UHGV virus genome: UHGV-0134101
Source: a virus
Length of the DNA stretch: 10,004 bases
Direction: 5' to 3' (one strand)
Shown here: piece by piece, positions 9,728 through 10,004 of the stretch
How positions within the stretch are numbered: the first letter of the stretch is position 1
Layout of the letters: each line of letters begins with the position of its first letter
Made by a program: the position numbers and the translations under genes
The notes under the pieces: model-generated
What the model saw: the letters and a program-made list of their open reading frames with translations, nothing else
Databases searched by the model: none
What the model was told of the DNA's origin: nothing

Positions 9728-9744
9728 CCGCATCAGCGGGTAAC
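9728..9744 (+). repeat. Copy 1 of a 17-bp hairpin-containing element CCGCATCAGCGGGTAAC preceding a small gene
   Basis: Identical 17-mer at 9728-9744 and 9950-9966. Each contains a CCGC-ATCA-GCGG hairpin and is followed exactly 17 nt later by an ATG (9761 and 9983). Confidence 0.6.
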
Positions 9745-9760
9745 TAAGTGGAGAGTACGT

Positions 9761-9949
9761 ATGCACAAGTGTCAATTCTGTGGGTACTTTCTGGCATCTG
9801 AAGAGATGCAGAGAATATCTGTAAACATGGTTGGCAGGCCTTACAACATCTGCATTCCATGCTCAGAAAAGTACAAAAAGAAAGGCCTGTGGGATTCGGC
9901 AAAAAACGATATCGACTGGAAATCACTTCCATGCGTCGATGAGACATAA
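9761..9949 (+). CDS. Small putative zinc-ribbon protein, 62 aa (CQFCG...CIPCSE)
   Basis: ORF track 9761..9949 with a GGAGAG Shine-Dalgarno 8 nt upstream. Two CxxC pairs. The stop TAA abuts the second copy of the 17-bp element. Confidence 0.5.
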   Translation: MHKCQFCGYFLASEEMQRISVNMVGRPYNICIPCSEKYKKKGLWDSAKNDIDWKSLPCVDET

Positions 9950-9966
9950 CCGCATCAGCGGGTAAC
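9950..9966 (+). repeat. Copy 2 of the 17-bp hairpin-containing element CCGCATCAGCGGGTAAC
   Basis: Exact repeat of 9728-9744, 222 bp downstream, with the same 17-nt distance to the next ATG (9983). Confidence 0.6.
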
Positions 9967-9982
9967 GACAGAGGGTAAGTCA

Positions 9983-10004
9983 ATGATTCGTCTTAACAAC
10001 GAAA
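9983..10004 (+). CDS. 5' end of a further rightward gene (MIRLNNE...), truncated by the window edge
   Basis: ATG at 9983 preceded by an AGAGGG Shine-Dalgarno and the repeated 17-bp element; only 7 codons are visible. Confidence 0.3.

Follow-up and report, generated by a model that had tools for sequence, protein, structure and literature searches.

A 17-bp hairpin element repeated in a lambdoid prophage lies within a conserved leader and ribosome-site block related to the lambda N leader

Why does a short hairpin-forming sequence stand twice, at the same distance, in front of two consecutive small genes of a virus? The case arises near the right-hand end of a 10,004 nt stretch of the viral genome UHGV-0134101 (the window), where the 17-mer CCGCATCAGCGGGTAAC occurs in two exact copies on the + strand (nt 9728–9744 and 9950–9966), spaced by 222 bp. 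This part of the genome is the early-left (pL) operon of a lambdoid prophage. The identity and architecture of the element are well supported: it is part of a conserved leader and ribosome-site module at the RNA level, a variant of the lambda N-leader stem and ribosome-binding site (RBS) with an extra hairpin. The second copy is the scar of the insertion or excision of a single 222 bp cassette. The duplication represents neither an array of regulatory elements nor paralogues repeated in tandem.

The 17-mer repeat

The repeat is real and chance is excluded. The two exact copies reported in an earlier note, made from the sequence alone, were recovered at the same spacing; no further copy was found in the window with up to three mismatches allowed (chance expectation, 0.02 matches), and two copies occurred in none of 200 dinucleotide shuffles of the window. 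The start codons lie at nt 9761 and 9983, with 16 nt between each copy and its ATG, which thus begins 17 positions past the last base of the 17-mer in both cases. A Shine-Dalgarno (SD) sequence is present in each interval, as the earlier note had also observed, and the two are unlike: GGAG (nt 9750–9753) after copy 1 and GAGGG (nt 9971–9975) after copy 2.

Both copies can fold into the CCGC/GCGG hairpin that had been proposed. In copy 1 the stem is of 5 bp with the loop AUCA (CCCGC-AUCA-GCGGG, nt 9727–9740, −9.0 kcal/mol), followed by UAAC to the end of the copy at nt 9744. This + strand hairpin, here called P2, is near-invariant across loci. Copy 2 (nt 9950–9966) adjoins the TAA stop codon of the intervening gene and has no strand of the long-range helix P1 (described below) upstream of it. 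Its hairpin has a stem of just 4 bp (−6.6 kcal/mol) because A9949 stands in place of the first C.

A GC-rich stem just upstream of each gene could be taken for an intrinsic terminator or attenuator between small genes, and more distant homologues of the gene between the two copies have a true terminator downstream (GCCGCATAGTCGGCCTTCTTTT), the stem of which (GCCGCATAGTCGGC) resembles the 17-mer. As judged from the sequence, this possibility is effectively refuted: no U tract lies 3′ of either copy, the tails after the hairpins being UAACGACAG or UAACUAAGU, a terminator scan of nt 9728–9985 made no call at either copy, and the stems are of 4–5 bp (−6.6 to −9 kcal/mol). A promoter scan found no promoter-like site in or beside either copy. 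The Rfam 15 covariance models (E ≤ 1) gave no family over the 17-mer element, and the sole Rfam match in the window and in the HK639 locus is a 16S-like fragment (nt 9635–9681 of the window).

Conservation and distribution of the block

The 17-mer is the core of a block of about 50 nt, AAAGCATTTCTC-CCGCATCAGCGGG-TAAC-GACAGAGGGTAAGG-N2-ATG, with the consensus (C)CAAAGCATTTCTC-CCGCATCAGCGGGTAAC-GACAGAGGGTAAGG-NN-ATG in most contigs. Written as RNA, the block is AAAGCAUUUCUC-P2-UAAC-GACAGAGGG-UAAGG-N2-AUG (~45–50 nt). A scan of IMG/VR with CCGCATCNGCGGGTAAC recovered at least 120 contigs, and in about 116 of these the 17-mer is surrounded by the same block. Conservation of the block extends from about −14 to +33, and the sequences on both flanks are unrelated. 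The strand of the block is always that of the downstream gene. Lambdoid prophages of Enterobacteriaceae that resemble phi80, HK639 or HK225 have the block where the pL leader ends. In phi80 it immediately precedes the gene called N, in HK639 it has one loop change, and HK225 has it as well. Prophages of seven genera carry it (Escherichia, Enterobacter, Citrobacter, Pseudocitrobacter, Kosakonia, Scandinavium and Trabulsiella), as do 112 of 5426 complete E. coli genomes, including that of DH5alpha, with a median of one place per genome. DH5alpha (H45, H47), EPI300 and related cloning strains have the block presumably in their phi80dlacZ remnant. The search for further copies suggested in the earlier note was therefore productive, and a simple segmental duplication with no conservation elsewhere, which that note had allowed for, does not describe the element.

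A single copy is the rule. Among 147 loci having the exact 17-mer, 131 carry it once, and two copies were seen in three of the 116 loci of the unbiased scan, among the matches listed. A conserved 5′ leader sequence, GACAGCTGAGCGAAG, occurs 200–1050 nt upstream of the element in 113 of the 147 loci. The pL leader therefore ends in the block, which is no general intergenic element. In 75 of 98 distinct contexts, exactly 16 nt separate the 17-mer from the start codon. Of the earlier proposal of a conserved translational or transcriptional control element, what stands is a conserved cis element at a fixed spacing from the start codon; its repetition before consecutive small genes is not the normal arrangement.

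Conservation on this scale could also arise if the block were kept mainly as a recombination linker for the exchange of modules, the hairpin having no RNA function of its own. Sharp mosaic boundaries do flank the ~50 bp block, independent duplications have occurred at it repeatedly, and Bet/Exo or RecT/RecE are encoded by these phages according to the annotations of relatives. Such systems can use homologies of about 50 bp, as in recombineering. However, a functional ribosome site at fixed spacing and one strand of a covarying RNA helix both fall within the block, which also matches the functionally studied lambda N leader, and second-order selection for exchangeability is weak compared with direct function. 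A linker role without RNA function seems an unlikely explanation.

The P1 helix

A long-range helix of 18–25 bp (P1), with a covarying distal part, has the left half of the block as its 3′ strand. In the window, where the block spans nt 9707–9760, the 5′ strand GGAAUGUUUUGGGCUGGC (+ strand, nt 9612–9629) pairs with the 3′ strand GCCAGC-A-CCAAAACAUUUC (+ strand, nt 9707–9725), in which A9713 is bulged, and P2 begins one nucleotide later. The 5′ strand was located in both the minimum free energy and the centroid fold of nt 9606–9766 (z = −5.6), and the 3′ strand by duplex prediction, covariation and the same fold. Across loci, the 5′ strand, (N)GGAAUGUUUUGGGG..., is found 85–300 nt upstream, and more than 50 distinct arm pairs gave duplex energies of −24 to −43 kcal/mol.

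The helix base, 12 bp long, is conserved in sequence. The distal arms fall into nine classes, such as GGGGUGUGGUG/CACCACACC, GGGCUGGC/GCCAGC, GGGAUUGGAUG/CAUCCAAUC and GUAGUGCAG/CUGCACCAC. In all nine the cognate distal arm was the most stable partner (mean −29.7 vs −20.5 kcal/mol), and none of 10,000 permutations was as good (p < 1e-4). RNAalifold recovered the P1 base together with P2 from 29 trimmed constructs.

About 25 of 137 loci have no P1. In these, another gene ends with its stop codon immediately before the block, which starts at (A)AGCATTTCTC, so that P2 with the SD also serves as a plain intercistronic spacer. In L037 (IMGVR_UViG_3300011678_000033), two tandem P1-type stems lie about 360 nt upstream of the 17-mer. 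The first ends in CCAAAGCATTTC, followed by an SD and a short open reading frame (ORF) without P2; the second has a lambda-like base (GCTTTGGG), a 16S-like apex, P2 and an SD. The P1 extension and P2 are therefore separable.

Relationship to the lambda N leader

The same bulged helix is formed by the lambda N leader, which has GGCUUUGGGGUGUGUG as its 5′ arm and CACACACC-A-CCAAAGC as its 3′ arm, followed by UAAC-UGACAGGAG-AAUCCAG-AUG(N). The window arms resemble these on both sides, including the bulged A. A helix of at least 16 bp (GGYUUUGGGGUGUG.../...CACACC-A-CCAAAGC) with this bulge is present in both the lambda and the window folds. In each case the helix pairs GG(C/U)UUUGGGGUGUG with CACAC(C)-A-CCAAAGC and has a variable apex, and it stands at the end of the pL leader, downstream of nut/boxA and directly before the first pL gene. 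The downstream sequence UAAC-(U)GACAG-GAG is then followed by AUG, 20 nt from UAAC to AUG, the ribosome sites being UAACUGACAGGAGAAUCCAG-AUG in lambda and UAACGACAGAGGGUAAGGCG-AUG in the window.

There are also clear differences. The phi80-type block reads CACCACACC-A-CCAAAGC[AUUUCUC-CCGCAUCAGCGGG]UAAC-GACAGAGGG-UAAGGCG-AUG. Its P1 base is about 6 bp longer (GGAAUG/CAUUUC), P2, an extra hairpin of 14 nt, separates the stem from UAAC, a hypervariable insert forms the apex, and in place of N the downstream gene comes from any of 48 unrelated families. Because an insertion of about 20 nt (AUUUCUC plus the P2 hairpin) separates CCAAAGC from UAAC, and the stem does not abut the UAAC–SD segment as it does in lambda, the block is called a variant of the lambda module. 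The lambda-type version without P2 was found in 57 phage records (lambda, 434, HK633, Sf6, SfI and others), always before N. This correspondence was read directly from the sequences and folds, because the MAFFT alignment wrongly placed the 3′ part of the lambda leader opposite P2.

Steege in 1987 and Kameyama in 1991 are said to have placed RNase III cuts in the lambda leader stem, at about +88 and +197 of the pL transcript. Both positions fall within the two lambda arms as located here. RNase III is described as a positive regulator of lambda N mRNA (Kameyama et al. 1991, as cited in PMC9032294).

Origin of the second copy

The sequence between the repeats, with the second 17-mer, is a single-gene cassette of 222 bp on the + strand (nt 9745–9966), as defined by an alignment of filled and empty sites (A3). 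It consists of a 16 nt RBS segment, TAAGTGGAGAGTACGT (nt 9745–9760), an ORF for a 62-aa zinc-finger protein of the CxxC..CxxC kind (nt 9761–9949; PHROG 19863, E = 5e-44) with its TAA stop, and the 17-mer (nt 9950–9966). The sequences of E. coli EC09 and ABWA45 are identical on both sides except for a 222 bp indel, and the window differs from strain L73 by the same indel, placed before a gene of the Nmad5 family. Two independent filled/empty pairs thus show an indel of exactly 222 bp with the 17-mer at its bounds. The identical cassette is found with at least six P1 or upstream types and at least five downstream genes.

Of the scar of a tandemly duplicated small-gene cassette suggested previously, the scar was borne out, for one 222 bp cassette; there was no tandem duplication of paralogues. 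The two downstream proteins, the 62-aa zinc-finger protein and the Nmad5-family protein, are unrelated (BLASTP E = 24), and no third copy of the element was detected by nhmmer in relatives of the same arrangement that reach 6 kb further to the right (L108 and others).

Precise units of this kind raise the question of whether the 17-mer is a DNA-level attachment site, of the integron attC/attI or Campbell type, the 62-aa gene being mobile by way of its hairpin repeat. The unit is exactly 222 bp with perfect 17 bp direct repeats and precise empty sites, it occurs identically in the six or more upstream and five or more downstream contexts given above, and its inverted repeat can form a cruciform or hairpin. 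In addition, homologues of the 62-aa gene (68–85% identity) in two other phage lineages each lie between exactly two direct repeats covering the ribosome site. Those repeats, however, are unrelated RBS sequences without hairpins: AATAACGGAGGGAGTATG in L154/L155 (positions 2986 and 3192) and TCACGTTATKARGGGG in L139 (2978 and 3190). Integron attC sites are imperfect inverted repeats of about 57–141 bp at the 3′ end of a cassette, with a fixed crossover point and a linked tyrosine integrase. The repeat here is of 17 bp with two arms of 4–5 bp, far below the length of known recombinase sites, no integrase is adjacent in annotated relatives and no recombinase is linked to the element. In more than 100 phages the element is single-copy, keeps to one strand and is coupled to an SD and ATG. 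The duplications also differ in register: at least 41 nt of the block are repeated in L048, 967 bp apart, and only GGGTAACGAYAGAG is repeated in L075. These differences favour recombination within or at the block over a site-specific crossover. Ordinary homologous or microhomology recombination in conserved arms of about 30 bp explains the same data, and an attachment site is considered quite unlikely. As members of one gene family stand between duplicated RBS regions on at least three occasions, there is a hint of a recurrent route of small-gene insertion.

Mosaic boundaries of this sort have parallels. Lambdoid linker or boundary sequences are part of the modular theory of Susskind and Botstein, and in T4-type phages, promoter-stem-loop (PeSL) cassettes flank small ORFs with an early promoter and a stem-loop. 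Common to these and to the present block are short conserved non-coding boundaries at mosaic joints, small accessory ORFs between repeated regulatory sequences, and the presence or absence of single-gene cassettes. Unlike them, the repeat described here has no promoter, normally occurs once and belongs to a defined structure of the leader RNA.

Genes downstream of the block

Among the loci collected, 106 distinct proteins belonging to 48 unrelated families follow the block. They are mostly small and often acidic. Ten of the longer or more frequent ones were scanned against Pfam, and because matches were obtained only for Nmad5 and DUF2528, no functional theme of the cargo is demonstrable. In the window, the second 17-mer is followed on the + strand (nt 9967–10,004) by the canonical RBS segment GACAGAGGGTAAGTCA, which contains the GAGGG SD, and by the start of the resident first gene, cut by the window end. 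This segment is identical to that of the empty-site loci L005/L73, L013, L063 and L172. The full-length protein from a relative matches the Nmad5 family (Pfam PF18757, 6e-31).

The phi80 gene annotated as N (L126, nt 3557–3853) is one of the 48 families found in this slot, behind near-identical leaders. Its product gave no N-family match in Pfam or NCBIfam, and its N-terminus, inspected by eye, is not arginine-rich. The label therefore looks positional rather than functional.

Proposed function of P1 and P2

The explanation we favour, with a probability of roughly 0.6, is that the 17-mer is an RNA-level cis element (P2 plus UAAC) within the conserved block of the pL leader, that the leader is processed by RNase III while P2 has a local role, and that the cassette duplicated the element in the window. 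RNase III would cut P1 as it does the lambda stem, detaching the boxA or put-like region (see below) and the apex RNA from the message. A cut in P1 would be expected near CC^AAAGCAUUUC, matching a 5′-arm cut near UUUUGG^GG, and the processed mRNA would begin at about AAAGCAUUUCUC. Sequence conservation also begins at about this point. The conserved block would then be the whole mature 5′ untranslated region (UTR), a standard ribosome-entry module for any early accessory gene plugged in. P2 probably acts locally, and it may do so by shielding the ribosome site from variable upstream RNA or by hindering decay that depends on the 5′ end. Everything distal to the P1 base and past the AUG is exchanged freely between phages. 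Since the block is the only homology shared by otherwise unrelated flanks, it would act as a recombination joint at which modules are brought together, possibly by the phages' own Bet/Exo or RecT/RecE. Recombination at the block would account for the mosaic joints as well as for the direct repeats on either side of the cassette.

Several points weigh against this explanation. The proposed cleavage of P1 draws on the likeness to lambda and on the cut sites reported there. Short near-identical segments are common in recombining lambdoid phages, and conservation by itself overstates purifying selection. If functional, P2 must work independently of P1, because the loci without P1 use the block as well. 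A cut equivalent to that of lambda would leave P2 about 12 nt from the new 5′ end, further than in classical protective 5′ hairpins. The P2 stem is broken in both copies of L137. Covariation, finally, gives the hairpin no support: P2 is near-invariant in sequence, with only the last base of the loop varying freely (A, U, G or C; AUCN). When the hairpin was left open in a scan of the genome collection, 13 of the 14 true sites had identical hairpins and one had GCGGA. Five scans of all of IMG/VR, each forcing a non-canonical base at one position of the P2 5′ arm, yielded five variants in six contigs. Three of these (CACGC, CCCCC and CCCTC) each break a pair and two (CCTGC and CCCGT) retain a G.U pair; compensating changes were found in none of the five.

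Such strict conservation could be due to a protein or another RNA that recognises the sequence, and not to the hairpin itself. As it comes without covariation, recognition of P2 as a sequence stays a serious rival, although we regard it as rather unlikely. P2 would then be recognised by a factor acting in trans, for example a repressor or activator of translation, an N-like RNA-binding protein that uses P2 as its boxB, or an RNA that pairs with it. In hundreds of copies, indeed, the stem and the greater part of the loop are essentially invariant, without compensatory change, while the distal P1 helix covaries freely; P2 lies between a nut/boxA-type leader and the first gene, where lambda has N-dependent translational control; and the block is kept even where P1 is absent. 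On the other hand, there is no conserved partner gene, the neighbour coming from any of the 48 families, and at least two kinds of leader, the boxA type and the put-like type, occur upstream. The boxB of a nut site has a 5 bp stem and a GNRA-like pentaloop, about 8 nt downstream of boxA, with its cognate N encoded nearby. The P2 loop, in contrast, has four nucleotides and is not GNRA-like, and no boxA is adjacent, the nearest being about 1 kb upstream. Pairing of the block with the conserved 5′ leader was considered and rejected, since the duplex (−34.5 kcal/mol) was no better than that of shuffled sequences (mean −36.1 kcal/mol).

A bolder extension of the favoured explanation is that the P1 base, P2 and SD form a two-sided docking platform for counter-defence cargo in phi80-like phages. 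RNase III would free the hypervariable apex as a small RNA, which with its tRNA-like folds and its mimic of 16S helix 11 could be a decoy or modulator of host RNA-targeting systems. The same cleavage would leave a standard 5′ UTR from which a hypervariable first gene is translated at once, and P2 with its flanks would supply homology for exchanging cargo of both kinds. This is a speculative proposal and, in our estimate, an improbable one.

The pL leader upstream of the block

A pL-type early-left promoter (TTGACT-17-AATAAT, + strand, nt 8626–8654) was found by promoter scan with 10 of 12 matches, and starts a leader of about 1.1 kb that ends at the 17-mer element. The sequence from nt 8660 to 8731, covering the transcript start region, a hairpin and boxA, is near-identical to the pL leader of phi80, in which pL is annotated (JX871397). 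Sequence inspection and a hairpin scan placed the hairpin GGCGGACAGCAAGTCGCC, followed by an rrn-like boxA, TGCTTCTTTAACA (nt ~8719–8731), in this conserved 5′ part of the leader (+ strand, nt 8701–8731). The phi80 counterpart is annotated 'nutL boxA; putative'.

The window aligns with HK639 only over nt 9147–9622. The put-like antiterminator RNA of HK639 was at first assumed to be present in the window; this was withdrawn, as the two do not align there. In the shortest leaders (L057, L038, L031 and L007), about 210–230 nt separate the marker GACAGCTGAGCGAAG, which sits about 20 nt into the shared leader, from the 17-mer. These consist of the common 5′ segment, an element of about 110 nt matching the put-like RNA region of HK639, and then P1 and P2. 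After the same 5′ segment, phi80 and the window have the hairpin and boxA instead of the put-like element. The boxA and put-like modules thus alternate between the same conserved ends and are two interchangeable modules of the antitermination type. A preprint on prophage Pas small RNAs deals with the late region and not with pL.

Within the leader of the window lies a small antisense gene for a zinc-ribbon protein of the ECs_2282 family (− strand, nt 9281–9490; NCBIfam NF047912, 82.9 bits against a cut-off of 37). Variable sites among relatives are distributed 37/17/6 over codon positions 3/1/2 in its frame. Because these codon-position statistics favour the minus-strand gene, the + strand ORF at nt 9194–9541 (115 aa, annotated in HK639 as HK639_45) is probably a spurious shadow ORF. 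In some RefSeq records the minus-strand gene is lengthened to 150 aa, its start ATG falling in the loop of the reverse-complemented 17-mer.

The variable P1 apex

The P1 apex is a variable insert of 60–180 nt, with at least 12 unrelated types among phages. That of the window (+ strand, nt 9630–9706) consists of a hairpin resembling 16S rRNA helix 11 (nt 9635–9681) and a second hairpin of 7–8 bp. The first, 47 nt long, matches positions 237–283 of the Rfam family SSU_rRNA_bacteria (32.2 bits, E = 4e-6). Its core (AGCTAGT..GCGACGA) is identical to rrsH of E. coli K-12 at 33 of 37 positions, and the changes preserve the helix, one flipping A-U to U-A and another turning G.U into A-U. About 20 of the loci fetched share this 16S-like apex in nearly invariant form. 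It may serve as a mimic or decoy, or be a captured fragment.

In HK639 (L003) the apex (nt 5481–5550) is tRNA-like, as it is in L031, L048, L062, L064, L099 and L075. These apexes have a T-arm (GGTTCGAATCC) and are called by ARAGORN as tRNA-Ile(gat) or tRNA-Ser(tga) of 70–80 nt. A tRNA gene upstream of the element in HK639-type loci (the 70 nt tRNA-Ile(gat) call) was rejected, since its 'acceptor stem' is distal P1 and Rfam gave no tRNA match; it is treated here as a tRNA-like apex and not as a tRNA gene.

With its 5′ hairpin, its rrn-like boxA and a long stem enclosing structured RNA (a copy of 16S helix 11 here, a tRNA-like one in HK639), the leader resembles a miniature rRNA operon. The resemblance is offered as an analogy only: the enclosed RNA is of just 60–180 nt and varies by phage, and a protein-coding gene follows the stem.

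Significance

These results extend the lambda N-leader processing stem and ribosome site to phi80, HK639, HK225 and many prophages, including the phi80 remnant in DH5alpha. The next gene in phages of the phi80, HK639 and HK225 type is one of dozens of unrelated small genes and not N, and the label N in phi80 is doubtful, the gene being one of 48 alternative occupants. The block thereby delimits, with precise bounds, a hypervariable slot that is the first to be transcribed from pL and a source of early accessory or anti-defence genes, and the apex of the stem is a second variable slot, for structured RNAs. The repeat in the window is a by-product of cassette gain and not a regulatory array, and the 17-mer itself is a sequence tag by which the slot can be located in any genome.

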